DNA of 64,000 nucleotides from Patescibacteria group bacterium (GTDB lineage Bacteria > Patescibacteriota > UBA1384 > XYA2-FULL-43-10 > 1-14-0-10-43-13): NCBI GenBank assembly GCA_041674765.1, contig JBAYVE010000005.1, forward strand, positions 1,645 through 65,644. The letters are read 5' to 3'. The translations under genes were made by a program, and so were the position numbers. Below are positions 13,377 to 62,581 of the stretch, in pieces. Numbering within the stretch: the first letter of the stretch is position 1; each line of letters starts with the position of its first letter. A model generated the notes under the pieces. It worked only from the letters and a program-made list of their open reading frames with translations, did not search any database and was not told where the DNA came from.

Positions 13377-13377
13377 T

Positions 13378-13500
13378 CCAAAGCTAAAAGCTAAAGGCTA
13401 AAAGCTTAAAGCTGAAAGACGAAAGCCGAAAGCAAAAAGCTTAAAGTCGAAGGCTAAAAGCTAAAGGCTTAAAGCTTAAAGCTGAAAGCAAAAAGCGGGA
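13378..13500. repeat. AAAGCNA 7-mer microsatellite array (aaagctaaaggctaaaagcttaaagctgaaag...), family also at 15545-15610, 17043-17080, 52990-53070, 4230-4300 and in-frame in gltX, mnmA, recG
   Basis: Directly visible degenerate tandem heptamers. Several copies pair with an inverted copy, giving terminator-like hairpins. Confidence 0.8.
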
Positions 13501-13528
13501 AAGTTTATCAAGTAAAGTGTAGGTAAAT

Positions 13529-14932
13529 ATGGCGCGGGAGAAGAATTACAATCAAAAACCGGAAAGCGGAATGTCGAAGCCGCTGACTCTTCGAATGCCG
13601 CCTCAAAACAGTGAAGCGGAAAGAAGTGTGTTGGGTGCGGTACTAATCGATCCGGATGCATTGATAAAAATTGCTGATATTGTGCATGATGATGATTTCT
13701 ATGATAGCCGTCACGGTTCGATCTTCATGGCGATGATCAATCTCTTTGAGAAGCGGATGCCAGTCGATATCGTCACTCTGTCGGAAATCCTGGAAACGGC
13801 AGGTCAAATCAAGGCGGTGGGCGGTTCCGCTTATTTGGCGGAGATTGTCAACTCCACACCTTCGGCAGCAAATATTGTCCACTATGCCCAAATAGTTCGG
13901 GACAAAGCAATTCTGAGGCGCCTGATCTCAGCCGGGGTCGAGATCACGGAGGCTGGCTATGACGAAGATGCCGATATCTCAGAAACCCTCGATGAAGCGG
14001 AAAAAAGATTGTTCGCTGTATCCCAGAATTCACTGAAGAACAAGTTCGCTGCGATTAAGGATGTCCTGACTGACGCTTTTGACAGAATCGATAAAATTCA
14101 CAAAGACAAAGACTCCGGCGCTTTACGGGGTGTTCCGAGCGGTTTCCGTGATTTGGATAGTGTGACCGCCGGTTTCCAAAAGTCTGATCTAATTATCCTA
14201 GCTGCCAGACCTTCGATGGGTAAAACTTCTTTTGCTCTAAACTTAGCCGAAAACGCCGCAATCGACGAAAAAATTCCCGTCGCTGTATTTTCACTTGAAA
14301 TGAGTCAGGATCAGCTTGTGGATCGTCTGCTCTCCTCCCAGGCGGGTGTTGATTCGTGGAAGCTCCGGACCGGCAACTTATCCGACGACGACTTTCCAAA
14401 GATTGGCTATGCGATGGGGGTCTTGTCGGAGTCTCCGATATTTATCGATGATTCGCCCGGCGGCAATATTATGGAGATCAGAGCCAAAGCCAGACGTCTT
14501 CAGATGGAGCATGGCCTTGGTTTGATTATTATTGACTATTTGCAGTTAATGTCAGGCCGTTCAAAAAGTAGCGATAACAGGGTACAGGAGATTTCTGAAA
14601 TATCGAGAGGACTGAAGGGACTTGCCCGTGAGTTGAATGTACCGATAATAGCGTTGTCGCAGCTTTCGCGTGCTGTAGAACACCGTGACGACAAACGGCC
14701 GCTTCTGTCGGACTTGAGAGAATCGGGCTCGATCGAGCAGGACGCCGACGTTGTCATGTTCCTCTATCGTGACGAATACTATAACCCGGAGAGCGATAGG
14801 AAGGGCATTACCGAGATTTTGATCCGCAAGCATAGAAATGGTCCGACTGGCAACACTGAGCTGTTCTTCAATCCGGCTCAGATGAGATTTAGCGATTTGG
14901 AAAAAAGGCGAGAATTCACTCCGGCCGAATAA
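13529..14932 (+). CDS. dnaB: Replicative DNA helicase
   Basis: DnaB N-terminal domain (ERSVLGAVLIDPDAL), Walker A ARPSMGKTSFALN, and RecA-like motifs (SLEMS; IIIDYLQLM). Confidence 0.9.
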   Translation: MAREKNYNQKPESGMSKPLTLRMPPQNSEAERSVLGAVLIDPDALIKIADIVHDDDFYDSRHGSIFMAMINLFEKRMPVDIVTLSEILETAGQIKAVGGSAYLAEIVNSTPSAANIVHYAQIVRDKAILRRLISAGVEITEAGYDEDADISETLDEAEKRLFAVSQNSLKNKFAAIKDVLTDAFDRIDKIHKDKDSGALRGVPSGFRDLDSVTAGFQKSDLIILAARPSMGKTSFALNLAENAAIDEKIPVAVFSLEMSQDQLVDRLLSSQAGVDSWKLRTGNLSDDDFPKIGYAMGVLSESPIFIDDSPGGNIMEIRAKARRLQMEHGLGLIIIDYLQLMSGRSKSSDNRVQEISEISRGLKGLARELNVPIIALSQLSRAVEHRDDKRPLLSDLRESGSIEQDADVVMFLYRDEYYNPESDRKGITEILIRKHRNGPTGNTELFFNPAQMRFSDLEKRREFTPAE

Positions 14933-31661: not shown

Positions 31662-32600
31662 ATGATTGACTTATCAAACAAAACTGAACTGACTTCATAT
31701 CTTAAAGAAAAGGGTCTCTGGGCAAAGCATGGCCTCGGGCAAAATTTTTTGGTTGATAGAGATGCGCTTGATAAAATTATCGATACAGCTTTTGATACAC
31801 CCCACCCAACCTCCCCTCACGAAGGGGAGGAGTCGTTGATTATTGAAGTTGGGCCGGGGGTAGGGACGATGACGGAGGAGCTTGTCAAACATGCGAAGAA
31901 GGTGATTGCGGTTGAATTGGATGAGAAATTAAAGCAATTGTTAAATGGCTATATTGCTGAATTGCTTAAGAACAACAATATAACAATAGAACAATATAAC
32001 AATTTTGAATTAATCAATGCCGATGTACTCAAGGTCAATATTCCCGAATTAGTCGGTGATCAGAAGTACAAGGTTGTGGCCAATATTCCGTATTATATTA
32101 CCTCCAAAATTTTGCAATTATTCTTGACGCTTGAAAATAAGCCGGAGAGTATTACTTTGCTCGTGCAAAAAGAGGTAGCAGAGCGGATTTGTGCTAAACC
32201 TGGTGAGATGTCGGTGCTGGCAGTTTCCGTGCAAGTTTACGGCGAGCCAAGAATTGCCGGCATTGTGAAGAAGGAATCATTTTTCCCCTCGCCAAAAGTG
32301 GACTCGGCAATATTGCATATCGCAATTTCCAATTTTCAATTTCCAATTTTCAATCAATTTCTAAATTACAATTTCCAAACGAAAGAAGCGTTTGAGAAGG
32401 CTTTTTTCCGCCTTGTTCATATCGGTTTTGCGGCAAGAAGAAAAACGCTCGCTAATAACCTCTCAAACGGCTACCATATAGACAAGAAGACAGCAGAGGA
32501 TATAATTAGATCAATGGGATTTTCTGTAAGCATTCGTGCGCAAGAATTATCAGTAGACGACTGGAAGAAGCTGGCAAAAGTCGTATTAGGTATTACGTAG
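31662..32600 (+). CDS. rsmA: 16S rRNA (adenine1518/1519-N6)-dimethyltransferase
   Basis: GQNFLVD....KI.......EVGPG.G.MT..L; NIPYYITS. Two in-frame element insertions: hairpin element at ~31797-31840 (DTPHPTSPHEGEESL) and TTTCCAA repeats at ~32325-32385. Confidence 0.85.
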   Translation: MIDLSNKTELTSYLKEKGLWAKHGLGQNFLVDRDALDKIIDTAFDTPHPTSPHEGEESLIIEVGPGVGTMTEELVKHAKKVIAVELDEKLKQLLNGYIAELLKNNNITIEQYNNFELINADVLKVNIPELVGDQKYKVVANIPYYITSKILQLFLTLENKPESITLLVQKEVAERICAKPGEMSVLAVSVQVYGEPRIAGIVKKESFFPSPKVDSAILHIAISNFQFPIFNQFLNYNFQTKEAFEKAFFRLVHIGFAARRKTLANNLSNGYHIDKKTAEDIIRSMGFSVSIRAQELSVDDWKKLAKVVLGIT

Positions 32601-32776
32601 TACGTATTAAGTATTAAGTATTAAGTGGTAGGTGTTATGTGGAGGAAGGCGCTGGGGAATGTACTAAGGGGTAAATATTAAGTATTATGCAAGAGAACAA
32701 AAAAATCGAATCTGAATATTTATTTGTCATTCCAGACTGTGGCTCGATCCGCCAACTGGCGGACTGGAATCCAGCC

Positions 32777-34779: not shown

Positions 34780-37506
34780 ATGCCAAGACAGCCGGAACAA
34801 TCTATGCCTGGTGACACACATCCGCCTTTTGCTGATCCTAGTACTGGTTTTTGGAAAGACAATGAAGCTTTTGATCGTAGATTTTCAACATACGGTCCAG
34901 CGATAAAATCAGCTGTTGAACAGATGATTTATATGGGCCACAGCACGGACTGGGTTATCAATGGTCAGATTGGCGATAATCCCGAATTTGATGCTGACAG
35001 TAGCGCCGATATGGAAAATATTTATCAAACAAATTCTTATTCGCTCCTACCGAACGAACAAAAGGCTGCTTTGATGAAAGAGATAATTCGAGAAATGTTT
35101 CGACAAATTAAAGATTTTCAAAGCAGGCTTTCTGAAGAGGGGAGCAAAAAGGTAGAAAGATTAAAATCTAGTAATTTCTTTGAATCGGATTATTCTAGAT
35201 ATAACGAGATTGATGATCCTTGGGCGGGAGTGGATCTGTCAGATGTCTATCCAGATTGGAGAGATGAAGGAGATTTGCAAGCACCCAAGAATCCTGAGGA
35301 TAATAGCGGTGAGTTTCCGGAGAACGGAACTTACGATTTTGTTATCAAGCAGGCGATTAATGAACTGAAAAATTTAGGGCAAGGTCCCGCTACTATAGAT
35401 TTTTTAATGGATTTCTGGAATGCAAGCCGCGATCCTTATTTTGGTCCGGCAATTGCCAATACGATCTCAGAGATCAATCCTGAATATGGGGTAAAAAAGA
35501 TCTTAGAGGGCATTGGGACTGCAGAAGAGGAAGACCAAACAAGATTATTGTCCTTGCTTTATCGTATGGAGCTCGGGAAAGTGGGTATCTCTGAGCAGGG
35601 AGTAAATTATCTCGGCCGCATTTTCGAGGTTGGCGTTAATGAAGGAAGCGTATCGCGTCTTACTGCCGATGGAAAAGTAGGAGTCTTTAACGATTTAAAG
35701 CAACTAATTGGTTTTTTTAAATTAGAAGGCGCCGACTTTACTGTAGAACAGCAAGGAGCCATAAAAAAACAGCTCGAAGCGATTACTATTGATATGCTTT
35801 TCATTCCCAGAACAGATGAGACCAGGGAAGACATTGCGGAAAAAGAGAAATTACTGGCTGAGTTTAAGCAAAAATATTTTCAAATATATCTTGAAGCGTT
35901 TTCAAAACACGATGATAAAGCCGATTTTAGATTCAATAATCTCTCACTTCCCGAGCAGGGCTTTGTTCTTAAATTCTTAAGCCAACACGATGAGGGCGAC
36001 CCCAGAAGAGAAGAATTTTTTAATTTTATCGTGAAATTTGGGGAAAATGGCCTTAGAGCATTTCGTTCAATCGAATTTGATCCTGATGCAGGAGAAAAAA
36101 TATTGGATCTCCAGGCAAACTTAAGCGATCAAGAAGCTGAAATTTTGTTTACTGAATATGGTAAAATTTATCAAATTGCCGAGGAAGTGGCTATCTGGGT
36201 TAAAAAAGTTCTATTTACTGATGCTGATAATCTCACTGCCAAAGACTTATTGGAAGTGAATATTCTAAGAGAGCAGATACTGAGGAAAGCTCAGGACGCC
36301 TTGTTGCACCCCATTGAAGAGAATAGTGGGACAAGATTCTTGCCTGGACGCGACCGACTATTTTTCATGCGCAATGAGTTGGAAAAAGTTGTCTCAAACG
36401 AGCCAACCATCGATAATTTTGAGATGGCTCAATTTATTTTAAATCGCTATTTTGCAGATAATGTGCCATCCGGAGAAAGATTATCTTTGTCTGAACAGGT
36501 TATTTCTGATGGCTTAGCCAAACTCTATAACAATCAGGAATTTTCTTTGCGAGATTACGAAGGGAAAACCAGTGACACCAGTAGGAGTTTGAGCGCTTTG
36601 TTGCATGAGATGAACGAAATGCCAGCGCAAGAAATGACAGGAGACCCGGAGGAGCGTTTGATTTATGATATTGGGGCGGGTGATGGCAGAATTGCTATTC
36701 CTTTGGCGTTATCGGGGGCAAATGTTGTCGGCATTGATTACTCTGAGAGAATGGTCGCTGATTCCAGAACTCGGCCGATTGAATTTGCTCGTACTTTAAG
36801 AAATGGAGAAGATGATCATCTTGCCGACTCGGCGAGGAGCGCTTTTGATCAAAACGGATTGAAGATTACTGAAGAGGCAATCGCAAAATTGCCAAAGAAA
36901 ATCGACATCAGACACGGTAATTTCTTTGATTTTGATAAGGAGAAATTTAAGACAAATTTTGGCGAAAGGCAGCCAGACGCCATTGTAATTATGTGGCACA
37001 CGCTCGGTTTTGCCGGCGATTTAGATGGAATCAGACGAGTTTTGAAAAATGCCTATGGGATATTACGACCCGGAGGCAGGATATTTATAGAGATGCCTGA
37101 TAGGAATTTTGGCGGCTACGCCAGGGCAATTCGAGAATTCCATGAAACCCATCCGGATAAACCTTTCGGCAGCATTCAGGATGCTCCGTCAAAAAGCAGT
37201 AACAGCCCAACAGAACAAAATGATGAATTAGCGACTTGGCGTTATTTTCCTAAAAACAGCGAGATTGAGGGCGCCCTGGAAGAAACTGGATTTGATCCTC
37301 ATGTTTCTCATCTTGGGTCTTATTTTGTTGCTGCGGAAGCCGGAGAAAACGCAAAATTGCTTATCAAAGAAAATATGTTTATTGCAGAAAAACCTCTTGA
37401 TCCTATTCGTCAGAAAAAGATGTTGGAATGGGCTCAAAATGTTGACAAAGATCAAGGACAACAGGAACAGCTGGATAGAATAAGGAAAGAGATAAGGGCC
37501 GCTTAG
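34780..37506 (+). CDS. Large (908 aa) cytoplasmic protein with C-terminal class I SAM-dependent methyltransferase domain; N-terminal ~600 aa unknown
   Basis: MTase motif I LIYDIGAGDGRIAIPLALSGANVVGIDYSERMV and motif post-I/II (AIVIMWHTLGF). The start overlaps the mntH stop by 4 nt, so the two are co-transcribed. Confidence 0.55.
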   Translation: MPRQPEQSMPGDTHPPFADPSTGFWKDNEAFDRRFSTYGPAIKSAVEQMIYMGHSTDWVINGQIGDNPEFDADSSADMENIYQTNSYSLLPNEQKAALMKEIIREMFRQIKDFQSRLSEEGSKKVERLKSSNFFESDYSRYNEIDDPWAGVDLSDVYPDWRDEGDLQAPKNPEDNSGEFPENGTYDFVIKQAINELKNLGQGPATIDFLMDFWNASRDPYFGPAIANTISEINPEYGVKKILEGIGTAEEEDQTRLLSLLYRMELGKVGISEQGVNYLGRIFEVGVNEGSVSRLTADGKVGVFNDLKQLIGFFKLEGADFTVEQQGAIKKQLEAITIDMLFIPRTDETREDIAEKEKLLAEFKQKYFQIYLEAFSKHDDKADFRFNNLSLPEQGFVLKFLSQHDEGDPRREEFFNFIVKFGENGLRAFRSIEFDPDAGEKILDLQANLSDQEAEILFTEYGKIYQIAEEVAIWVKKVLFTDADNLTAKDLLEVNILREQILRKAQDALLHPIEENSGTRFLPGRDRLFFMRNELEKVVSNEPTIDNFEMAQFILNRYFADNVPSGERLSLSEQVISDGLAKLYNNQEFSLRDYEGKTSDTSRSLSALLHEMNEMPAQEMTGDPEERLIYDIGAGDGRIAIPLALSGANVVGIDYSERMVADSRTRPIEFARTLRNGEDDHLADSARSAFDQNGLKITEEAIAKLPKKIDIRHGNFFDFDKEKFKTNFGERQPDAIVIMWHTLGFAGDLDGIRRVLKNAYGILRPGGRIFIEMPDRNFGGYARAIREFHETHPDKPFGSIQDAPSKSSNSPTEQNDELATWRYFPKNSEIEGALEETGFDPHVSHLGSYFVAAEAGENAKLLIKENMFIAEKPLDPIRQKKMLEWAQNVDKDQGQQEQLDRIRKEIRAA

Positions 37507-38306
37507 CCCCCGGCTCCTCTCCAGGCAAGTTCAAAAAGCCCTCTCATGCTCTCGGCTATGTTCTTGTTGTCTATAATAACGGCGACTAGGACATCATCCT
37601 TGTTGTAATTGCAGAATGAGACCTTGTTGCCATATATTTGAATCTCAAGTTTACATGTAAACAAACTTTTCTTAACTACCCTTGTTTCTCTCAATTCGGT
37701 CTTGTCGTGAGCCAGATAGTCGGCCGTGTTTTTATCCTCGCCCGACGAGACAATAACTCGTGCCGGAATATTTGCTTTCACTCTTCTCTCTACATAGTGG
37801 TCTCGAAGCCATCGCCAAACTTTAGGATCAGACTCGGCTGCTTCCAAAAAGGCGTCGATTGGTTTGCCGACTTTGAGTGTGTCTTCGTATAATTCTTTGA
37901 TACCTTCATATCCTTCCATTACCCTGACCACCGGACGTTCGGTCGTCATCTTAAACATCTCTGACAAGCCGGGGAGTACAGAGTCGATGAGGGAATCTGC
38001 TTCTCGGAATTTTTGTTCTTGGTCAACGATATATTCCTTTAATCGATATGGATCTCTAGGGCGAAATTGAATTTTCTTATTCTTGATTGTTTGTTCTATC
38101 ACGCTCTTGTCGCGGAGGGAATAGAGGATATTGTAAAGATCGCCCCTTTTGTAAGGGGTTTTTGGTGTTAGGTCGCGTACTCCAAGCTGGCCACTAGAAA
38201 GTAATACCTCGTAAACTATAGCCTCTTTTTCCGATAGTCCTGCGCGGGATAAGACATCCTGATACTTGGAAATAGATTCCTTTTTTGGAGTTTTGTCATC
38301 TTGCAT
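37503..38306 (-). CDS. TrmB-like winged-helix transcriptional regulator (paralog of 29074..29787)
   Basis: N-terminal ...LSEKEAIVYEVLLSSGQLGVRDLTPKTPYKRGDLYNILYSLRDKSVI. Similar overall architecture to the 29074 protein. Confidence 0.5.
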   Translation of the reverse strand: MQDDKTPKKESISKYQDVLSRAGLSEKEAIVYEVLLSSGQLGVRDLTPKTPYKRGDLYNILYSLRDKSVIEQTIKNKKIQFRPRDPYRLKEYIVDQEQKFREADSLIDSVLPGLSEMFKMTTERPVVRVMEGYEGIKELYEDTLKVGKPIDAFLEAAESDPKVWRWLRDHYVERRVKANIPARVIVSSGEDKNTADYLAHDKTELRETRVVKKSLFTCKLEIQIYGNKVSFCNYNKDDVLVAVIIDNKNIAESMRGLFELAWRGAGG

Positions 38307-40314: not shown

Positions 40315-41361
40315 GCGATGACACGCATTTTCTTGAGTTCCAACCCCGAAAATCTGGCGGCTGAGTTGGCCGCTTTCCGCCTGACCGCAACGGTTGAGGC
40401 AGAATTCGGCGACACGGTCGTCGAAGGGTCAATTCTGACTCTCGCGCATCACGGCGCCCGGTCGGCGAACTCGGCTCCCTGCCTCGCCAGCAATGGTGTG
40501 GCCGGTGACCCGGTGCAGGTCGAGGCGATTGGCGTGAGCCACATCGACCTCGATTCCCTGGGCGGCGTAATGGCCGTCCTCGGGTCCAAGCCGGAATCGG
40601 TCGGCTTCTGGGCCTTGTCGGCCTTCGTCGATACGAATGGCCCCCACAAGTTGGCCCAGGCCGGCGCCGAGGCAGCGGATGTCGCCCGGCTCTACGCCTT
40701 TTGGGCGTATAGCCAGGCGCACCGGCTCATGCCGGATCGTTCCGGCGCCGTCACGGATGTGACCGAGCAGGTCACCGAGGCCATGGAGGCAATCGCGGCC
40801 ATCCTGGCCGACGACCCCGCCATGCTGGCCGCCGGCAATGATTTCCGCTCGGCGGAGGATTCGCTGAACAAGCGATCCTTTGTCGAGATGGTGGGAGGCG
40901 TTGGCGTCCGCGTTGCGGACGTTTTCGTCAGCCACCTCTATGGCTCGCCGGAAGGCGAGCTGGCGAAGGCCGTCGTGGCCTTTAACACCGTCACGGGTAC
41001 CGTGACGGTTTCCCTTGCTGATCCCATCCCCGGGGTCAGCGCCTGCACGATTGTGCAGGGAATCTGGGGGACGGAAGCCGGCGGGCATGCCGGCATCGCG
41101 GGTAGTCCCCGCGGTCGCCGCATGACTTTGGCTGATCTTGCCCGGGCGGCGGAAGCCGTCCGGGAGGTCATCGCCTCCACTTCGGTGGAGTGCGAGGACT
41201 GCGGGCAGGTGGTCTCCGACCTCCTGCCCGGCCAAATCCCCGACGGTTGGGGCACCGTCGGGTGCTACGAGGATTGCCCCAAGCACGAGGAGGCGTATTG
41301 CCCCTCGTGCTTGCCCGCCGCTCAGGCGGCGGGGCGTCATCGCTGTGGGCATGACCACTAG
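40315..41361 (+). CDS. Hypothetical protein (62% GC island) with C-terminal Cys/His-rich metal-binding tail; weak DHH-phosphoesterase-like motifs
   Basis: RBS GGAGGGA. Contains GVSHIDLDSLGG (similar to DHH motif I H..D.D..G) and GGHAGIAGS (similar to DHH-family GGGH motif), but no DHH triad. C-terminal CEDCGQ...CYEDCPKHEEAYCPSC...HRCGHDH. The antisense 333-aa ORF is judged a GC-shadow. Confidence 0.45.
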   Translation, partial: AMTRIFLSSNPENLAAELAAFRLTATVEAEFGDTVVEGSILTLAHHGARSANSAPCLASNGVAGDPVQVEAIGVSHIDLDSLGGVMAVLGSKPESVGFWALSAFVDTNGPHKLAQAGAEAADVARLYAFWAYSQAHRLMPDRSGAVTDVTEQVTEAMEAIAAILADDPAMLAAGNDFRSAEDSLNKRSFVEMVGGVGVRVADVFVSHLYGSPEGELAKAVVAFNTVTGTVTVSLADPIPGVSACTIVQGIWGTEAGGHAGIAGSPRGRRMTLADLARAAEAVREVIASTSVECEDCGQVVSDLLPGQIPDGWGTVGCYEDCPKHEEAYCPSCLPAAQAAGRHRCGHDH

Positions 41362-41560: not shown

Positions 41561-41647
41561 CAAAAATTACTGTCTTATAAATTGATCTATCAGATTAGTT
41601 ATAAGGCAATAATGCCTTGATTGTGAGTCGAAAGGAGAAAGACCATG
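41561..41647 (+). promoter_or_regulatory. AT-rich regulatory element inside GC-rich island: AAATTACTGTCTTATAAATTGATCTA...TTATAAGGCAATAATGCCTT...GAAAGGAGAAA-ATG; second copy at 42719-42805
   Basis: The two ~85-nt copies are about 85% identical. Each contains the palindrome AAGGCAATAATGCCTT and an RBS, and ends at the ATG of a small ORF. Confidence 0.7.
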
Positions 41648-41830
41648 GCTTACAATTGCAAAAAGACGGACCATGATGGTCCGAAGCGTGGCGCTGGCGC
41701 CTTTCGGGGTCGCCGCGCCGACGCAAAAGTGGCGGCTTCGCGCCGCCGCCGCCAGGATGGCCGCAATGAAGCGGCCAAAGGACTGGCAGAACAGGGGAAC
41801 GCTCAGGAGGGCGTTCCCAAACCATTTTGA
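41645..41830 (+). CDS. Small basic protein (61 aa, Arg/Ala-rich)
   Basis: ORF immediately following the repeated regulatory element + RBS AAAGGAG. Confidence 0.35.
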   Translation: MAYNCKKTDHDGPKRGAGAFRGRRADAKVAASRRRRQDGRNEAAKGLAEQGNAQEGVPKPF

Positions 41831-41916
41831 TTAAGATTTAGAGTTTTTTGATTTAAAATTCCAATCTTCATCAAATCCCATTATGGCCATTGAGTCTGAG
41901 GGAATGGAGGTGAAGT

Positions 41917-42204
41917 ATGTTGAAACATTTTTTACGGTTTTTAAACCGTATAGCTAAAGCCGAGGTCGTAAAGGCCGAAGCGGAAGCTATGGCGGCCAAA
42001 GTGGCCGCCGACGAAGCCGCAAGGAAGGCGGCACGAGAAAATCACGAAGCGCAGGAAGCGCTTTTGGTCGTAACTGCCCTGAAGGATTCGGGGCGGTTGA
42101 TCTCATCCATCACAGAATTCACTGGTGGGTGTGATCGGGGTGCGTGGCACCCCACGAAGATTTGGAGTCTTGATGGGCAACAGATTGCCCACTGGACTCT
42201 TTGA
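41917..42204 (+). CDS. Hypothetical protein; 5' leader (41860-41916) shares a conserved motif with leader of 46971 gene
   Basis: Leader ...CTTCATCAAA.C.CATTGAG.CTGAG.G.A.GGAGGTGAAGTATG is shared with 46913-46970. Confidence 0.4.
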   Translation: MLKHFLRFLNRIAKAEVVKAEAEAMAAKVAADEAARKAARENHEAQEALLVVTALKDSGRLISSITEFTGGCDRGAWHPTKIWSLDGQQIAHWTL

Positions 42205-42331
42205 AAAGGATTGGCCGGACGACGCGGCCATAAGCTACTCAAATGATTGAGTAGCACAGTCGAGCCATGCAGCCTCGCGGTATCGGGAATAAGCTCATAG
42301 AGCCCCAACCGCAAAAAGGAGGTGTAGTGCA

Positions 42332-42529
42332 GTGGCAAAAGACGCTCAGGCGGCCATGAGGCCGTCTGTCATCCCCATTCTCATCGAGAAGGGGATGAGC
42401 CGCGAGGAGTTGATGCTTCTCGTAGATCGTCTCGTTGGCGAGGTGGAAACCTACGCTAATGGGCCGTTCTCGGCAGAAGCACTCCGTGGCGAAATCACGG
42501 CAGTGCAGAATACCGTTGTAAAACGGTAG
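42332..42529 (+). CDS. Hypothetical small protein
   Basis: ORF with RBS AAGGAGG (42317-42323). Confidence 0.35.
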   Translation: MAKDAQAAMRPSVIPILIEKGMSREELMLLVDRLVGEVETYANGPFSAEALRGEITAVQNTVVKR

Positions 42530-42802
42530 ACTGCTGGGTACAAAACTTTGCTCCGACGGGTTAGATCGGGGCGGCGCCAGTCAAGGTGTCTGGGCGGGGA
42601 CTTTCCTATAAGTTGTCTTCATGGCAGCGATGAAATGGAAAGCGAAACCACAAAAATCCGCAACTATGCGACAAATAGTGAAATATTCCCGAGGAGCCCC
42701 AGCTGGGGCTCCTCAAATCCAAAATTACTGTCTTATAAATTGATCTAATTTGATCAGTAATAAGGCAATAATGCCTTCTGGCGCATATGAAAGGAGAAAA
42801 TT

Positions 42803-42937
42803 ATGATCGTATGCGTATATTGTAAAACGCCCCCGGATGGGGCAGCCGTGTGCCCGTGTTGCGGCCACACGATGGACTCCTCCACCATGGAATGGGTGGA
42901 GGAGCAGGATAACTCTCCCAAGGATGGGGAGAAATAA
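42803..42937 (+). CDS. 44-aa zinc-ribbon protein (CVYC...CPCC), not in ORF track (<60 aa)
   Basis: Translation MIVCVYCKTPPDGAAVCPCCGHTMDSSTMEWVEEQDNSPKDGEK, read manually. Preceded by the second copy of the regulatory element + RBS AAAGGAG. Confidence 0.4.
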   Translation: MIVCVYCKTPPDGAAVCPCCGHTMDSSTMEWVEEQDNSPKDGEK

Positions 42938-43197
42938 ACAAACCGATTTATCCGTGAGAGGCATCGGGCATGACGTCCTTTGCCTCTCAAATTTTTCTCT
43001 TTATCAAACTGCTCTCGAACTTCGAGAGCAGTTTCAGTATAGAGTTTTCTTGGGCCACCCTGCCCATTTGCCCTGACGCGCCGTCCGTAGATTTACGCAG
43101 AGGATGGACTTGTTTGGCTTGAAACACTAGCCGGACTGGAGGGAAGTCGATTAAATTCGGCCAGGCAGGGGTGGGTGATAATCCCCGGTCTGAGGAG

Positions 43198-45150
43198 ATG
43201 AAGATGAATAAAAGTCTTCCGATCGCCGACTATCGCGAGCAGATTCTGCAAGCGATAGAGGTAAACTCGGCGGTGGTGATCACTGCCGAAACGGGAGCTG
43301 GGAAATCGACCCAGGTACCCCAATTCCTTATGGAAGCGGGATATCGAGTGGTCGTGACCCAGCCACGGCGTCTTGCCGCAAGGACAGTGGCCGAGCGTGT
43401 AGCCGAAGAAGTCGGTTGCCAGCTTGGTGAAGAAGTCGGCTTTCGAACTGGCTTCGAGCGTAAGGACTCGGCTCAAACCAAAGTGCTTTTTTGCACGGAT
43501 GGTTTGCAGCTCGTCCGCGAGTTGACCGGCAACGGTGCCACCGACGTTCTTGTTATTGATGAAGTCCATGAGTGGAACATCAACATCGAGACGTTGGTCG
43601 CCTGGACGCGCAAGCGTTTGGGTGAAGGTGTCGACTTCAAGGTTGTGCTGATGAGTGCGACCTTGGATGCCGAGAGGCTTGCCGCGTTCTTTGGCGAGAC
43701 AGTGCCGGTGATCTCGGTGCCAGGTCGACTTTTTCCGGTCGAAACAAAAAGTGGCAGGACGAGCGAACTGGTGCCGACCGTGCGTGGACTGGTAGCTGAG
43801 GGCAGAAATGTCCTTATTTTCCAGCCTGGCAAGCGGGAGATCGAGGCGACGGTTCGGGAATTAACCGGGCTGAACGTTGAAGTCCTCCCCCTGCATGGGG
43901 ATATGGAATCGGCCGATCAGCGCCGAGCGTTTCGTCACTATGACCGTCCCAAAGTGGTCGTGGCGACGAATGTGGCCCAGACCTCCATTACCATCGATGA
44001 TATCGATGCGGTGGTGGATAGTGGGGTCGAGCGGCGGGTTGAGTTGGTTGACGGGATTGAAGGTCTTTACCTCAAGCCCATTAGCCAAGCAGATTGCAAG
44101 CAGCGCGCCGGTCGAGCCGGACGTTGCAAAGAGGGCATTTATGTTCTCTGCTCTGATTCGTCACTGGAAAGCCGTCCGGCATATCCCAAGGCGGAGATCG
44201 AGCGAAGTCGTCTCGACCAGTTGGTACTGCGTTTGGCGGTGACTGGCTTTGATGCTACAGCATTAGAGTTTTTTCATCAGCCGGAGCGGGCTGTGCTGGA
44301 AGATGCGAAGCGTGCCTTGCATGCATTGGGGGCGATGTCGGAGGACGGCCAGGTCACGAAGATCGGGCGTCAGATGGCAAAACTGCCGATCAGCGTGCAG
44401 TATGCGCGCATGGTGATCGAAGCGGCTCGTCTCGGCGAAGAAGAGGACGTAACGACGATTGTCGCACTCCTCGAAGCCGGCGGATTGCGTGCCAGCAAGG
44501 ATGATCGCTGGCGGAAATTGACGGCGGAGATACAGAGTGATCTGCTTGCCGAGCTGGACCTCTTTGAGGCCTGTCAAGGCTTCTCTGGCGAGGATTTCCG
44601 TGAAAACGGCGTCTTTGCCAAGGCCTATTTTCGGGCAAAGGAGATTCGGGCGAAGCTCCGTCAGGCGCTTGTCAGTGCGGGGATCAGTTTTGACCGGTCG
44701 GAGAAACACGACCGGCAAGCGATCATGAAGGCCTGCGTTGCTGGGATGGTGGACCACCTTTATCACACAGACGGGTGGAGTGATTACCATAACGGTAGTG
44801 GGGGCACGCGCCAAAAAGCGCGCGAAAGTGTTGTCTCCGGTTCGCCGGAGTGGGTCGTGGGCTTGCCCAAAGATATTGGGTTTAAGGATCGCCGCGGTTA
44901 TGACCGCGTCCTGAACCTGGTGGCGATGGTGACGGCCGTCGACCCAATGTGGCTTGCCGAGGTGGCGCCGCAGCTAGTGCGGCTGGATACGGGACTTTCC
45001 CCTCACTTCGACTCCGAGAAGGACCTGGTTGTTTCGACGACACAGACATTCTTCAAAGAGTCGAAGATCGGGGAGGAAATTATCCCTGATCCGGCGCACG
45101 CAGAGGCGGCGTCGGTGTTTGCAAACTGGCTCGCCAGCCAGTGCCTTTAA
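43198..45150 (+). CDS. DEAH-box (HrpA/HrpB/DHX-like) ATP-dependent RNA/DNA helicase
   Basis: Motif I ETGAGKSTQVPQFL, Ia VVVTQPRRLAARTVAERVA, DEVH (VLVIDEVHE), SAT (LMSATL), motif V VVVATNVAQTSITIDDIDAVVDSG, motif VI QRAGRAGRCKEG. Start set at MKMNKS after RBS GAGGAG. Confidence 0.8.
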   Translation: MKMNKSLPIADYREQILQAIEVNSAVVITAETGAGKSTQVPQFLMEAGYRVVVTQPRRLAARTVAERVAEEVGCQLGEEVGFRTGFERKDSAQTKVLFCTDGLQLVRELTGNGATDVLVIDEVHEWNINIETLVAWTRKRLGEGVDFKVVLMSATLDAERLAAFFGETVPVISVPGRLFPVETKSGRTSELVPTVRGLVAEGRNVLIFQPGKREIEATVRELTGLNVEVLPLHGDMESADQRRAFRHYDRPKVVVATNVAQTSITIDDIDAVVDSGVERRVELVDGIEGLYLKPISQADCKQRAGRAGRCKEGIYVLCSDSSLESRPAYPKAEIERSRLDQLVLRLAVTGFDATALEFFHQPERAVLEDAKRALHALGAMSEDGQVTKIGRQMAKLPISVQYARMVIEAARLGEEEDVTTIVALLEAGGLRASKDDRWRKLTAEIQSDLLAELDLFEACQGFSGEDFRENGVFAKAYFRAKEIRAKLRQALVSAGISFDRSEKHDRQAIMKACVAGMVDHLYHTDGWSDYHNGSGGTRQKARESVVSGSPEWVVGLPKDIGFKDRRGYDRVLNLVAMVTAVDPMWLAEVAPQLVRLDTGLSPHFDSEKDLVVSTTQTFFKESKIGEEIIPDPAHAEAASVFANWLASQCL

Positions 45151-45161
45151 AGGAGGGCAAA

Positions 45162-46676
45162 ATGAGCGAAAAACTCCTAGAGGTGCTGGCGGCAAACAAA
45201 GCGCGACAAGATCGCGCCCGCCAGCTTAATATTCGGGCCGGGGCAGAAATGTTTCCCGTGCTCGACCAGGCGCAAATGAGAGCCTGGATGACCGATAAGG
45301 CAGCGGGAGCGCGCCGGATGGCAGAGATTGCCGATCCTGAAGCTCTACGCTTGCCTGCCCTCGACGAGGTTTTGGTTCAAACGGTGATTCGCGAGAACCC
45401 CGACGAGATCGAGCTTCTCGGGGCGATGCGAACAGTGGATTACAAGGATAGTTACGGCCGTTCCAGGCCGAATCCGCGGGTCCGCATTGACTTCAGGGGA
45501 GAGAATGCCAACGACTGGCAAAGGCTCCCCGACGAGATCCGGTTGCCGGGTGGCCGTGAGGTTTGCCTGTATTCCGCCATTGACGGATATGGGTATTACA
45601 TCGAGGCTGTGCCCTCTGAGTTTAAGGCAAAAGTGCGTGATTGCCTAAACCAGGCTCAATGGGACAACTGGCCTCAGGCCGATCGACCGGAGATCCCAGT
45701 TCTCGACCCGGCCGACGACGAGGCGGCTATCCCTGAAATCACCACTGTCCAGTACGGGCAGTGCGTGGTGACGGGCGAGCCGCTCATCGCCTTTGGTACT
45801 TTGGCTCCGAAGAGCCGATACTACACGACGGACCCATATTTCGTGGTCCAGTGGTACCGGTCGATTGAGGAGGCCGAAGTGTCTCGGGTAAAGGCCGTCG
45901 AAACGCTCGAGAAAGAGCTAGCGGCTGTCCGGGAGTGCCGGGAACTGGAGATCGCCAAGCAGGAAGCTGAAGCGGTCAAATTAATATTCGAGTCACTCTA
46001 CCGCGAAGTAGATAATACCCGCGAGTGGCTTGAGTTGCCGGATGAATTGAGGAATCGTCTTCGTAGCCGGCATTGTAGCTATGTACCATCCTCATTGCTG
46101 GAAATCCGCCAATGGCAAGCAGAGACAGAGGCGTTAATCGCTGAGGTAGGGCCAGCTTTGGTGGAAATCAAGCGTCAGCAGGCGGAAGCCGAGCGTCAGG
46201 CACGCGAAGAGCAGGAAGCTGCTGTTCGTGCCGAAGAAGCTCGGCGGGTTCGTGAGGAGGAAGCCCATCGTGGGCAGATGGAAGAGATTCTGACTGCCAT
46301 GCGGGGTGTCCTCGGGTATGTGCCTGTAATCCGTTGCGACTTTGAAGAAGTCGCCGGCAAGAATGGTACATACTTGGAAAATTGGGGCCGCCTCACAGGT
46401 ATTAACTGTGATGGCGAGTCCGACTCGTACTGTGACGGCCGTAATGCCGTGGTGGTGCAGTCTGTTGAAACCACCGGCGGTGTGCTGGAGTTCCTGGCCT
46501 ACTGGAAGTATGGCAATTGGAACTTGGCCGCTCGCTGGCGAGAACTTTCCGAAGCCGCGGCACACGCCGTTGAGATTGGGGAGGTTCGGGCGGAGGATCT
46601 GGAAGATCCGAAGCCAGTAGAAGATCTGGGGGCGTCGCTTGCGGCGCTCCAGGCGAAGTTCAAAGGATTGAACTAA
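45162..46676 (+). CDS. Hypothetical protein with central coiled-coil (ERQAREEQEAAVRAEEARRVREEEAHR)
   Basis: RBS AGGAGGG. The start is 12 nt after the helicase stop. No recognised domain. Confidence 0.45.
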   Translation: MSEKLLEVLAANKARQDRARQLNIRAGAEMFPVLDQAQMRAWMTDKAAGARRMAEIADPEALRLPALDEVLVQTVIRENPDEIELLGAMRTVDYKDSYGRSRPNPRVRIDFRGENANDWQRLPDEIRLPGGREVCLYSAIDGYGYYIEAVPSEFKAKVRDCLNQAQWDNWPQADRPEIPVLDPADDEAAIPEITTVQYGQCVVTGEPLIAFGTLAPKSRYYTTDPYFVVQWYRSIEEAEVSRVKAVETLEKELAAVRECRELEIAKQEAEAVKLIFESLYREVDNTREWLELPDELRNRLRSRHCSYVPSSLLEIRQWQAETEALIAEVGPALVEIKRQQAEAERQAREEQEAAVRAEEARRVREEEAHRGQMEEILTAMRGVLGYVPVIRCDFEEVAGKNGTYLENWGRLTGINCDGESDSYCDGRNAVVVQSVETTGGVLEFLAYWKYGNWNLAARWRELSEAAAHAVEIGEVRAEDLEDPKPVEDLGASLAALQAKFKGLN

Positions 46677-46970
46677 TCGCCAATTTCCGTCCATCACCCT
46701 TCCTTCGGGAGCGGTGATGGACACTTCAACCTGCCCGTGATGGCTATTCTACATGTTTGTCTATTAGATGATCATGCAGGATACTCCTGAGCCATTGCCG
46801 GCAGATTAGAAGAATTTGGAAACAGTGCGTCTTAAACCTTTCTATCTTTTGATGCAGATTTAGAGTGATTAACTTTATAACTTTCAGCTTTATGAACTTT
46901 ATAAACTAATTTTCCAACCTTCATCAAAGCGCATTGAGCCCAATTGAGGCTGAGCGGGAGGAGGTGAAGT

Positions 46971-47762
46971 ATGGCGAAAGATGGGGATGTGAGATATTCC
47001 GTTTCCCCAAGTTGTTATACCGGCTGTTATTGTATTCGCCGGTGTTTGTACAACGCCAAGGTCAGGAGACCAAGGTGGGAGAGAAGTTGTGACGAAGATG
47101 TCTACGGCATTGAAAGTGCCATAGAGGTTTTTATAAGTAAACTTCTTTCAGAAACTCCTGGAACTTTCCAAGTTGAAGTTTCCAAGGAGATCCTGGAACA
47201 TGTTCCGGGCTTGATCTCAGCAGAGGGGGAGATTGACTTGGATGTCTGCCGCTCCTTTCTCCAAAAATTGGATGAAGAAAAAAAGCGAGCTGAGCAGGAG
47301 GAAGCAAGGCTTGCTGAAATCGAGCGCCGAGAAATTGCGGAGATGATTGCTGCGAGCAACGATCAGTTCCGCAACCGGTTCTCGGAGTTGGTGGGAAAAA
47401 CCGTCTCCGGGCTGGAACTTTCCGGTGACCAAACAGGCTTATGCCTTCGATTCACGGATGGATCGGAAGTCTGTTGGGAGGCTGCTCCGGGCTGCTGGTC
47501 CTGCGCTGAGGCTTGGTGGAACGACGGCATCGGCGTGGAAAATTTGTTCGGTACTCCCGTCACGGAGGTCTTACAGTTGGAGCTGCCGAATACTTCACAG
47601 CAGCGAGTCAGTGCTGTGGCTTATGGGGTTCAATTCCGAACCAGCAAAGGGGTGACGACCTTTGCTTTTCGGGGCAATCACGAGCATTACGGAGCTTCCA
47701 TTGAGATCATTGAGAAGAGCGAACTCGATGGATGGTCTCCAGTACAGGATGATTGGGGCTAG
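46971..47762 (+). CDS. Hypothetical Cys-rich N-terminus protein
   Basis: Shares its 5' leader with 41917. Followed by a rho-independent terminator at 47881-47915 (AATCCCC...GGGGATTTTTTGTT). Confidence 0.4.
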   Translation: MAKDGDVRYSVSPSCYTGCYCIRRCLYNAKVRRPRWERSCDEDVYGIESAIEVFISKLLSETPGTFQVEVSKEILEHVPGLISAEGEIDLDVCRSFLQKLDEEKKRAEQEEARLAEIERREIAEMIAASNDQFRNRFSELVGKTVSGLELSGDQTGLCLRFTDGSEVCWEAAPGCWSCAEAWWNDGIGVENLFGTPVTEVLQLELPNTSQQRVSAVAYGVQFRTSKGVTTFAFRGNHEHYGASIEIIEKSELDGWSPVQDDWG

Positions 47763-48130: not shown

Positions 48131-48589
48131 ATGACTAATAAAAACAATGAATTCCAAAATGTTATGGCTTTGACAAAGGATGATTTACAAGCGATTGGCA
48201 ACATAATCGACAATAAGATCGATGATTTTGCTGTGACTGTGGCGGCTGGTTTTGGCGATATGAAAGAATATATGGACAAACGGTTCGATCAAGTCGACAA
48301 GCGTTTTGAACAAGTAGACCAACGATTTAAGCAAGTCGATAAACGCTTTGAACAAGTTGACCAGCGCTTTGATCAAGTCGACAAACGCTTCGACTCTATG
48401 GATTTTAAGATTGGTTTGATGCAAACAGATATCAAGGAGATCAGGGCGGAAATTGTCAAATTAAATTTGAGATTAGATATAATAGAGAAGAGAACCTTTG
48501 AAGATACTGATCTGACTCTTAGGGAAATCGAGAAGGTTAAAAAAAGAGTTTTATTGCTAGAAAAGATAGTGAAAATAAAGACCGCCTGA
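48131..48589 (+). CDS. Heptad-repeat protein (tandem DKRFEQV/DQRFKQV x5 = 21-nt DNA repeats) with C-terminal coiled-coil
   Basis: KRFDQVDKRFEQVDQRFKQVDKRFEQVDQRFDQVDKRFDSMD, read directly. The underlying DNA has period 21. Confidence 0.55.
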   Translation: MTNKNNEFQNVMALTKDDLQAIGNIIDNKIDDFAVTVAAGFGDMKEYMDKRFDQVDKRFEQVDQRFKQVDKRFEQVDQRFDQVDKRFDSMDFKIGLMQTDIKEIRAEIVKLNLRLDIIEKRTFEDTDLTLREIEKVKKRVLLLEKIVKIKTA

Positions 48590-48886
48590 ATTTTTATTCC
48601 CGACAAGGAGTATTTCAGTGCGGTTTTTTGTTATAGAAAATAAGGGGGGATTATGATAGGATTGACGGAAGTATTAAGGGCTTAGTATTAAGTATTAAGT
48701 ATAGAGTATAGAGTATTAAGTTAGCAGGTGGATCATACCCCACCTAGCCTCCCCTTTCTAAGGGGAGGAATAACTGGACGACATCAAATATTAGGTATTA
48801 GGTTGGGCAGAGCAATGTTTCGGGCAGGAGATTTCTCCGCCTACGCCTTCGGCGGAGAGTCAAAATGACAACAGGATAATAACCAA

Positions 48887-61121: not shown

Positions 61122-61208
61122 TATTTATTCTTCGACTCCTCGGTCTTCGAGGTTGGAGAAGTACAAATACTGTTAGTTCTCCACCCGCAAGCACACGGAG
61201 TCGAACAA
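61122..61208 (+). repeat. ~85-nt structured element TTCTTCGACTCCTCGGTCTTCGAGGTTGGAGAAGTACAAATACTGTTAGTTCTCCACCCGCAAGCACACGGAGTCGAACAATAA; near-identical direct copy at 62446-62530; partial copies at 53925-53995, 2655-2695, 60680-60700
   Basis: The two copies differ at ~3 positions and flank mnmA. Internal hairpins are CCTCGGTCTTCGAGG and GGAGAAG...TTCTCC, with an outer pairing TTCGACTCC/GGAGTCGAA. Confidence 0.8.
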
Positions 61209-61262
61209 TAAAGACGAGACAAGAACACGAGTCGAAGAATAAAGAAACAACGCATCTTAATT

Positions 61263-62438: not shown

Positions 62439-62581
62439 AAGCCTATTCTTCGACTCCTCGGTCTCCGAGGTTGGAGAAGTGCAAATACTGTTAGTCCTCC
62501 ACCCGCAAGCACACGGAGTCGAACAATAATTGGCAAAAACTCATGATTTATCATTTTGGTCTTAAACATTATACTAGAGCT

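Follow-up and report, generated by a model that had tools for sequence, protein, structure and literature searches.

Repeated leader-to-ATG elements as probable portable expression cassettes in a GC-rich helicase island of a Patescibacteria-labelled genome

Why do unrelated genes of a small GC-rich island share the DNA that runs directly into their start codons? The question is raised by a stretch of 64,000 nucleotides, referred to here as the window (contig JBAYVE010000005.1 of assembly GCA_041674765.1, positions 1,645 to 65,644 of the forward strand), from a metagenome-assembled genome (MAG) labelled Patescibacteria by the NCBI. The window is ∼42% GC on average and contains a block of 52-59% GC at roughly 40-48 kb. 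This island (∼40.1-47.9 kb) carries eight open reading frames (ORFs), all on the + strand (p347, p61, p95, p65, p44, an HrpA-like helicase, p504 and p263), and lies on the same contig as genes for MetRS and RsmA. Two elements, P and L, occur twice each, directly 5′ of island genes; they are probably portable cis-acting expression cassettes of a mobile, GC-rich island with a split HrpA helicase. Loci and contigs compared with the window island are labelled L001-L030; the two L copies of the window are called W1 and W2, and two of those in locus L010 are called L010b and L010c. Two independent assemblies (L008, ENA; L009, Logan) agree exactly in this sequence, so the repeats are not an assembly artefact. 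The cassettes and the stem-loops next to them are as follows.

41561..41644, + strand: P cassette copy 1, directly 5′ of p61, with a 27-nt exact block, TATAAAT, a 17-bp hairpin and a Shine-Dalgarno sequence (SD)
41576-41582, + strand: -10-like TATAAAT of P copy 1
within P copy 1, + strand: SD, of sequence GAAAGGAGAAA
41795..41916, + strand: L cassette copy 1 (W1), with stem-loop 41795-41818, AAACCA, TTTTGATTAAGATTTAGAG, a T-rich stretch, TAAAAT at 41854-41859, the leader and the SD GGAGG
42691-42714, + strand: stem-loop preceding P copy 2, GAGGAGCCCC/GGGGCUCCUC
42719..42802, + strand: P cassette copy 2, directly 5′ of p44
42955..42987, + strand: stem-loop GAGAGGCA...UGCCUCUC after p44, from reading of the sequence
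46847..46970, + strand: L cassette copy 2 (W2), with the same ends as copy 1 and an insertion of ∼35 nt; the ATG follows at 46971

The P copies, compared over 87 nt (41561-41647 and 42719-42805), were 81% identical in a global alignment, with 90% identity in the first 58 nt and 63% in the 29 nt that follow, a part in which the copies share no more than GAAAGGAGAAA and the ATG. A repeat search returned an exact block (41563-41589 = 42721-42747, 27/27) and a second block that is 92% identical (41593-41618 / 42752-42777). With up to 3 mismatches allowed, the 24-mer ATTACTGTCTTATAAATTGATCTA still has exactly two occurrences in the 64 kb and none in 100 shuffles; it was absent from viral contigs, and pattern scans of viral and metagenome contigs located the P cassette in no other contig. 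The segment AAGGCAATAATGCCTT, described in the initial annotation as a perfect palindrome, differs from its reverse complement at 3 positions: 6-nt arms (AAGGCA/TGCCTT) flank an asymmetric 4-nt ATAA, and the reverse strand of TAAGGCAATAATGCCTT fits only with 3 mismatches.

W1 ends at the ATG of p95 (41917). The 59-nt leaders of the L pair (41861-41919 and 46914-46973) are 82% identical by alignment; blocks found in the repeat search were 80% (41889-41928 / 46943-46982) and 70% identical (41825-41874 / 46847-46896), and the homology reaches upstream to TTTTGAT..AGATTTAGAG (41825 / 46847). Both repeat pairs reported in the initial annotation are thus real, neither of them falling below ∼70% identity, and neither element recurs elsewhere in the window or in shuffles. 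The insertion of ∼35 nt in W2 (within 46860-46905) holds three CTTTATRAAC-like units; these resemble CTTATAAAT of the P cassette and might represent duplication of a -10-like or binding motif. The leader motif by itself (CTTCATCAAANCNCATT) is not rare, as 5 of 100 shuffles gave at least 2 matches at 2 mismatches; the significance of L comes from the full alignment of 59-95 nt and from the copies in other islands.

Three such copies were found in L010 (6256-6358, 6774-6866 and 7304-7404), where they abut the ATGs of three different, unrelated ORFs (131, 129 and 258 aa), none of them homologous to the cargo of the window. L014 and L017 hold one diverged copy each, before a 60-aa ORF that reads as hydrophobic in our own inspection of the sequence. 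Relative to the shorter copy, identity was 92% for W1 and L010b, 90% for W2 and L010b, and 87% for W1 and W2. Across the window and L010 islands L is 83-92% identical, as against 70-78% for coding DNA (helicase 78%, p504 70%), and L is therefore taken to be under constraint. The order p61, stem-loop, L is shared by the window and L014, and the gene that follows differs. W1 is immediately preceded by a GC-rich stem-loop (41795-41818, within the 3′ end of p61), as are L010b, L010c and the L copy of L014, and also P copy 2 (42691-42714) and the L014 p61 leader; the stem-loop at 42955-42987 resembles those of L010b and L010c in a comparison made by eye, not by a tool alignment. Viral contigs lacked the L pattern, and in metagenome contigs it matched only an already known contig (L016 = L011) and, by chance, an unrelated one (L015). 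A covariance model (R1) built from the L leader recovered its seven training copies alone in 217 kb (window and loci), so that no further copy is hidden there, for instance ahead of p65, p347 or the helicase. The proposal of repeated cis-regulatory modules directly 5′ of island genes is borne out in so far as the modules end at the start codon and L is constrained across islands.

Both elements are predicted to fold as RNA, with the following helices.

41571-41608, + strand: 17-bp imperfect hairpin of P copy 1, UGUCUUAUAA.UUGAUCU / AGAUUAGUUAUAAGGCA, with 2-3 G-U pairs
41603..41618, + strand (second copy 42762-42777): small 6-bp hairpin AAGGCA-AUAA-UGCCUU of P
41619..41657, + strand: p61 initiation-region helix, in which the spacer 41619-41630 pairs with 41646-41657 (12 bp)
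41866-41872 / 41909-41915, + strand: L closing helix of W1, CUUCAUC / GGUGAAG; GGUGAAG overlaps the 3′ end of the SD GGAGG
46919-46925 / 46963-46969, + strand: L closing helix of W2, CUUCAUC / GGUGAAG

Sense RNAs of 100 nt from the P copies gave z = -4.9 and -4.7, and none of 200 shuffles folded as well; the reverse complements fold 3-9 kcal/mol worse. The 17-bp and 6-bp hairpins would be mutually exclusive, because the AAGGCA arm is common to both. The 3′ side of the p61 helix (41646-41657) comprises the UG of the AUG and codons 2-5 and leaves the SD in the loop; the equivalent helix of copy 2 (42781-42790 with 42807-42816, 10 bp) takes in the first codons of p44. The minimum free energies (MFE) of these initiation-region helices were -13.1 and -12.1 kcal/mol for copies 1 and 2 (reverse complements -3.7 and -6.8), with z-scores of -2.8 and -3.05. 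The P spacers are non-homologous, and each of them pairs with the 5′ codons of its own ORF. The p61 leader of L014 has diverged in sequence, yet the layout of three hairpins is kept: the hairpin at the same position reads GGGUUA-UAAA-UAACCC there and AAGGCA-AUAA-UGCCUU in the window, so that the shape is preserved and the sequence is not. Strand asymmetry, G-U pairs, copy-specific pairing and the layout kept in L014 together favour a role of P at the RNA level over one as an operator in double-stranded DNA, as judged from these predicted folds.

For the seven L copies, RNAalifold predicted that CUUCAUC pairs with GGUGAAG between SD and AUG and encloses a variable inner hairpin. The model has 10 pairs, with 97% of all cells paired (closing helix 100%) and double changes at 2 pairs (CG to UA in L014 and L017; GC to CG or the reverse in three copies). 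Its covariation score was reached by 1 of 500 shuffles, and slid controls were 26-54% paired. In the single-sequence MFE structures of L014 and L017, the box UUUUCAUC pairs with GAUGAAAA, start codon included. A conserved helix at the SD-AUG region of L, backed by limited covariation, is thus predicted with moderate confidence. More generally, initiation regions of the island had a mean MFE of -17.5 kcal/mol and z = -2.4, versus -7.5 kcal/mol and z = -0.24 for host genes of the window.

On this basis the cassette can be described in four parts. A stem-loop would probably end the upstream transcript, and an AT-rich stretch with a -10-like hexamer (TATAAA/TAAAAT) would probably start a new one; it would be followed by a 5′ leader of ∼55 nt that folds as sense RNA and by a standard ribosome-binding site (RBS) abutting the ATG. 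The -10-like hexamers, TATAAA in P and W2 and TAAAAT in W1 and L010, stand at a conserved place, 58-67 nt before the ATG; promoter and terminator function are what we infer from this architecture. An assumed start ∼7 nt after TAAAAT (41854-41859) would put the CUUCAUC box at the very 5′ end of the mRNA. In L, these presumed first nucleotides of the leader would then pair with GGUGAAG and close the leader into one stem-loop. In P, the 17-bp hairpin would compete with the 6-bp hairpin, and the copy-specific spacer would pair with the first codons of the ORF behind it. Such folds may set mRNA stability and/or translation initiation alike for all cargo genes. By analogy with the promoter-early stem-loop (PeSL) elements of T4-type phages, the repeated cassettes might also offer homology patches at which recombination swaps cargo between islands (PMC2839356, PMC4122927).

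A number of results weigh against this reading. P is known from the window alone, apart from the one diverged homologue in L014. A scan for canonical sigma-70 promoters found none (best score 9/12, L copy 1), promoter-like matches are not enriched in the island (5 vs 5.8 in shuffles), and the spacing between -35-like and -10-like sequences varies from 13 to 21 nt among the L copies and is not conserved. The stem-loops are not canonical intrinsic terminators, since no U-tract directly adjoins them and AAACC intervenes before the T-run. The transcription start site, and hence the 5′ end of the folded leader, is an assumption. Single-sequence z-scores of L are modest (-0.4 to -3.0), and its covariation comes from seven related sequences with very few independent changes. 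Finally, the segment from SD to AUG is unpaired on average at 0.53 in the island and at 0.53 in host genes. This equal accessibility weakens a simple model in which an anti-SD strand occludes the SD, and repression is not claimed, since the SD-AUG segment is no more occluded in the island than in the host; stabilisation or presentation of the RBS by the leaders is, from the folds, equally possible.

The genes that follow the cassettes, and those around them, are listed below.

40318-41361, + strand: p347, island ORF
41645..41830, + strand: p61, small basic protein of the KTEHxGPKxGxGAxxGRKxxAK..RRR family
41917..42204, + strand: p95, cargo behind L copy 1, without a family match
42803..42937, + strand: p44, CxxC...CPCC mini-ORF
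43056..43203, + strand: GC-rich structured helicase leader, CCCUGC...GGCCAGGCAGGGGUGGG-loop-CCCC..CUGAGGAGA
43204..45150, + strand: DEAH/HA2 (HrpA-like) helicase, core gene, with partial matches to NCBIfam HrpA/HrpB models below the family cut-offs
45162..46676, + strand: p504, helicase partner and second core gene, fused to the helicase in some relatives
46971..47762, + strand: p263, cargo behind L copy 2, with weak, sub-threshold similarity to DUF7448 / phrog_2650

The helicase covers about the first 700 residues of HrpA models of ∼1,285 residues (residues 64-708 of 1284). For p504, an AlphaFold model (pLDDT 77.8) had its best PDB match in E. coli HrpA from a disome complex (9gft_B, E 3.9e-3, probability 0.87), at a low TM-score. 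The two proteins plausibly form a split HrpA, the evidence for which is weak. Single ORFs that span helicase and partner exist in L002 (1449 aa) and L006 (874 aa), many matches of the helicase family are ∼1000-1130 aa long, and in an all-vs-all comparison of ORFs the single long ORFs of L006 and L007 cluster with the helicase-partner group. The helicase has roughly 2,000 relatives; relatives at 43-64% amino acid identity were found in MAGs labelled Komeilibacteria, Saccharibacteria, Nomurabacteria, Gammaproteobacteria and Clostridia; p504 homology follows directly after the helicase in 5 of 7 loci, and in 5 of 7 the module likewise stands out by its high GC content from a genome richer in AT. 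Closer relatives were retrieved by exact-protein look-up, with helicase identities of 81% (L010), 82% (L014 and L017), 67% (L018) and 66% (L019) at the amino acid level. Their flanks, those of L010 and L014 among them, do not match those of the window. Helicase and partner alone are common to the islands compared; all other ORFs are lineage-specific cargo, except p61, which is shared with L014. The AT-rich promoters had been interpreted as an adaptation to the host, an explanation that is not needed, as the cassette travels with the island into other contexts (the flanks of L010 and L014 are unrelated).

The helicase-partner module is GC-rich relative to its flanks in the window and in L001, L003, L004, L005, L006 and L028-L030, in hosts of 25% to 45% GC from several phyla. 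L003 and L004 have tRNA genes close to the island edge; no integrase was seen in this set of islands. L028-L030 are uncultivated virus genomes of IMG/VR (95-250 kb, 25% GC, classed as viral) with the helicase (55% amino acid identity) and a homologue of the partner; they may be either large phages or misclassified host fragments.

Structured leaders are not confined to P and L. A leader of the pattern CCCUGC ... GGCC..GCAGGGG.GGG-loop-CCCC ..UGAGGAGA stands just before the helicase ATG and recurs at L010 2598-2711, L014 3165-3278, L017 339-452 and L004 9905-10000 and 12480-12575. It is kept in L004, whose helicase is 58% identical, and there precedes both the helicase and the partner gene. The window copy (43056-43203) had no Rfam match, and the leader may be an undescribed cis-regulatory RNA motif. 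Other lineages have repeated leader-to-ATG elements of their own: 80 nt x3 in L001, 95 nt x2 in L004, 41 nt x2 in L018, 54 nt x2-3 in L019 and 50-54 nt x2 in L003. Since every other island lineage has its own, standardised leaders are regarded as a property of the whole family. L010 also has a 106-nt repeat (1152-1257 / 2425-2530, 86% identical), the copies of which lie on the 3′ side of different ORFs; neither the window nor Rfam contains a match to it.

Several related islands contain intergenic type III hammerhead ribozymes. Rfam matches were obtained for L004 9827-9881 and its second copy at 13777-13831 (E 3e-6 and 6e-6) and for L010 8216-8310 (E 2e-3). Two further hammerheads are at L019 3286-3338 and ∼1941-2028 (Rfam E 0.46 for L019). 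For those of L001 (8612-8668 and 12905-12961) the support is the core motif plus the MFE fold, with no Rfam match even on a 4.9-kb slice; motif and fold also support L019. In L001 and L004 the hammerheads are direct repeats that flank the helicase-partner module. The canonical three-way junction is the MFE fold in 5 of the 7 (both of L001, L019 3286-3338, L004 13777-13831 and L010); L004 9827-9881 and L019 1941-2028 do not fold into it. The window gave no hammerhead match in Rfam at E<=1 (38-50 kb) and no match to the CUGANGA/GAAA core motif, and the same Rfam scan returned nothing else of relevance, P and L matching no ribozyme family or leader.

Of the ORFs behind P, the description as a 61-aa basic protein and a 44-aa CxxC...CPCC protein proved accurate, and the expectation that small ORFs would be conserved holds for p61 and not for p44. 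The p61 family has 86 representatives at E<1e-3 among 1.84 billion proteins (consensus MAYNAKKTEHAGPKKGRGAYYGRKADAKKASNRRRRED); it is widespread and uncharacterised, and p61 had no Pfam or PDB match. The stem-loop 41795-41818 falls in the last codons of p61, the stop codon of which is already part of the beginning of L copy 1. Two family members (P0134 and P0136; L022-L026) are encoded directly downstream of BrnT toxin / BrnA (CopG-like) antitoxin pairs on unrelated contigs and a third (P0140; L027) directly behind an HTH_3 gene, which suggests a link of the family to toxin-antitoxin operons. For p44, an orphan, no homologue was found among 5.8 billion proteins; its GC content at third codon positions (0.69) is consistent with coding.

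Searches for genes of phages or other mobile elements were carried out with the island DNA and proteins. Collections of phages (50,697 records) and plasmids gave no match with the island DNA (megablast) or with the p61 consensus and p504 (tblastn). The island has no phage hallmark genes, its PHROG matches being the helicase and one family of unknown function. Neither an integrase nor att repeats nor a repressor were found in it, and PADLOC assigned no defence system, giving weak generic helicase matches only. The regulator closest to the island is encoded by a TrmB-like gene (37503-38306), ∼2 kb from the estimated left island edge (∼40.1 kb) and 3.3 kb from P copy 1.

The host DNA around the island is rich in 7-nt tandem repeats, listed with period 14 in repeat tables (for example window 13375-13515, 32569-32647 and 48669-48721), and in hairpin repeats resembling miniature inverted-repeat transposable elements (an 86-nt pair at 61126-61211 / 62444-62529 with 97% identity; the GCTCAGGATGACAA family). 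Heptamer repeats had hinted at a heterocystous-type cyanobacterium as host, a reading discarded because the identical proteins, MetRS and RsmA included, bear the NCBI label 'Patescibacteria group bacterium'. By our own reading, the L010 flanks contain similar types of repeats, and host influence on the cassettes may be considered for this reason. Just outside the island, the ORF 48131-48589 encodes a 152-aa coiled-coil protein (p152) with five tandem 21-nt units at 48266-48393 (heptad DKRFEQV-like) and weak matches to sll0565/ssr2422-type families.

A serious, if rather unlikely, alternative to expression cassettes comes from the use of type III hammerheads between genes in related islands. 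The window island would then be transcribed into a single long + strand RNA, in which the P hairpin and/or the L stem-loop serve as cleavage or maturation signals (for an RNase III-type or other nuclease, or as an unrecognised self-cleaving fold) that release monocistronic units. Such a transcript would suit the common + strand orientation of the island genes, and a P hairpin that is long, sense-specific and highly significant would suit a processing site; in L004, L010, L001 and L019 intergenic hammerheads appear placed for this task, and the window has none. However, neither P nor L matches an Rfam ribozyme family at E<=1, and a bulged hairpin of 17 bp is short for RNase III. The stem-loops and -10-like hexamers are equally compatible with independent transcription units, and the presence of L cassettes together with a hammerhead in L010 shows that one does not simply replace the other.

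The initial annotation had proposed a scheme in the manner of phage immunity regions, with a single repressor that binds the inverted repeats as DNA operators and controls several promoters together; this we consider very unlikely. An inverted repeat with identical 6-bp arms does occur twice near a -10-like hexamer, and p61, which is very basic, conserved and encoded behind one of the copies, would be a conceivable autoregulator. Yet searches of Pfam, NCBIfam, PHROG and PADLOC gave no helix-turn-helix (HTH), ribbon-helix-helix or other DNA-binding match for any of nine ORFs (eight of the island and the flanking p152), so that the HTH repressor expected by that model was not found, and phage genes are lacking. 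The dyad is imperfect, the L014 homologue keeps the shape of the hairpin and not its sequence, the larger pairings are strand-asymmetric and need G-U pairs, and the L pair has no dyad at all; the p61-family genes elsewhere follow BrnT/BrnA pairs and are not found at promoters of a regulon of their own. Highly improbable, and disfavoured here, is the view that the copies are neutral relics of recent segmental duplication or gene conversion tracts. It would account for the finding of two copies only of each element in the window and of P in no other contig, but L is conserved above coding DNA across islands and always ends exactly at the start codon of unrelated ORFs, structure is kept through compensatory and copy-specific pairing, and all related lineages show this design, built from other sequences.

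If P and L are indeed expression cassettes, a small mobile island of candidate phyla standardises the expression of interchangeable cargo by a reusable cassette, a principle documented so far mainly for the PeSLs of T4-type phages. The cassettes would provide candidate promoter and leader sequences for these organisms, in which, to our knowledge, no promoter has been mapped, and a marker both for new cargo genes and for exchange between islands. The island family, with its split HrpA-like core, GC-rich patches across phyla, hammerheads and standard leaders, is more unusual than the cassettes themselves, and the link of a split HrpA-like RNA helicase with structured leaders and hammerheads is a lead to a possible regulatory system at the RNA level. 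A wider reading, which is speculative and on balance unlikely, would place the island in a so far undescribed family of mobile modules, compact, GC-rich and lacking an integrase, with a split (sometimes fused) HrpA-like core, mainly in MAGs labelled Patescibacteria or candidate phyla radiation (CPR) and also in Omnitrophica, Gammaproteobacteria and Clostridia. Each module would carry its own post-transcriptional regulon, with cargo behind RNA cassettes (hammerheads in some lineages, P and L here) whose expression depends on the remodelling of leaders by its own helicase.

Among known systems, RNA thermometers (such as ROSE/fourU) and 5′-terminal stabiliser hairpins (such as that of the ompA leader) are stem-loops of the 5′ untranslated region that bracket or occlude the RBS. 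Comparable helices are predicted in all copies of P and L, with some compensatory change: in L the 5′ end of the leader pairs with the SD-AUG spacer, and in P the spacer pairs with the first codons. P and L differ from these examples in being unlike any Rfam leader and in having an SD core that lies mostly in a loop and is no more occluded than in the host. Intergenic type III hammerhead ribozymes, reportedly described in bacterial and phage operons by Perreault and co-workers in 2011, are present in the related helicase islands, including as direct repeats around the helicase-partner module, whereas the window island has none and P and L lack the CUGANGA/GAAA core. Operators of the lambda OR/OL type likewise combine a repeated inverted repeat with promoter-like sequence in horizontally acquired DNA, but here there are no repressor or phage genes, the dyad is unconserved in the relative, and the pairing is strand-asymmetric with G-U pairs. 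Integron cassettes and their attC sites resemble the island in their small, variable, same-strand cargo genes with repeated structured elements in between; here, by contrast, no integrase is present, and the repeats lie 5′ of genes and include an RBS and a promoter-like stretch, which is not attC architecture. The closest parallel is offered by the PeSLs, composites of a stem-loop and an early promoter found around small orphan genes, whose shuffling as modules they mediate (Arbiol et al. 2010, PMC2839356; Comeau et al. 2014, PMC4122927). A short stem-loop and a promoter-like motif are likewise repeated between small, mostly orphan genes of a variable region, as seen for L before p95, p263, the three unrelated ORFs of L010 and the 60-aa ORF of L014 and L017. 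The setting differs, being a chromosomal island in a Patescibacteria-labelled MAG and not a T4-type phage, a strong sigma-70 consensus is lacking, the conserved unit runs on through a folded leader and the RBS to the ATG, and promoter activity, terminator activity and mini-circles are putative for the window cassettes. P and L resemble PeSLs in architecture and distribution, yet they are not members of that class.

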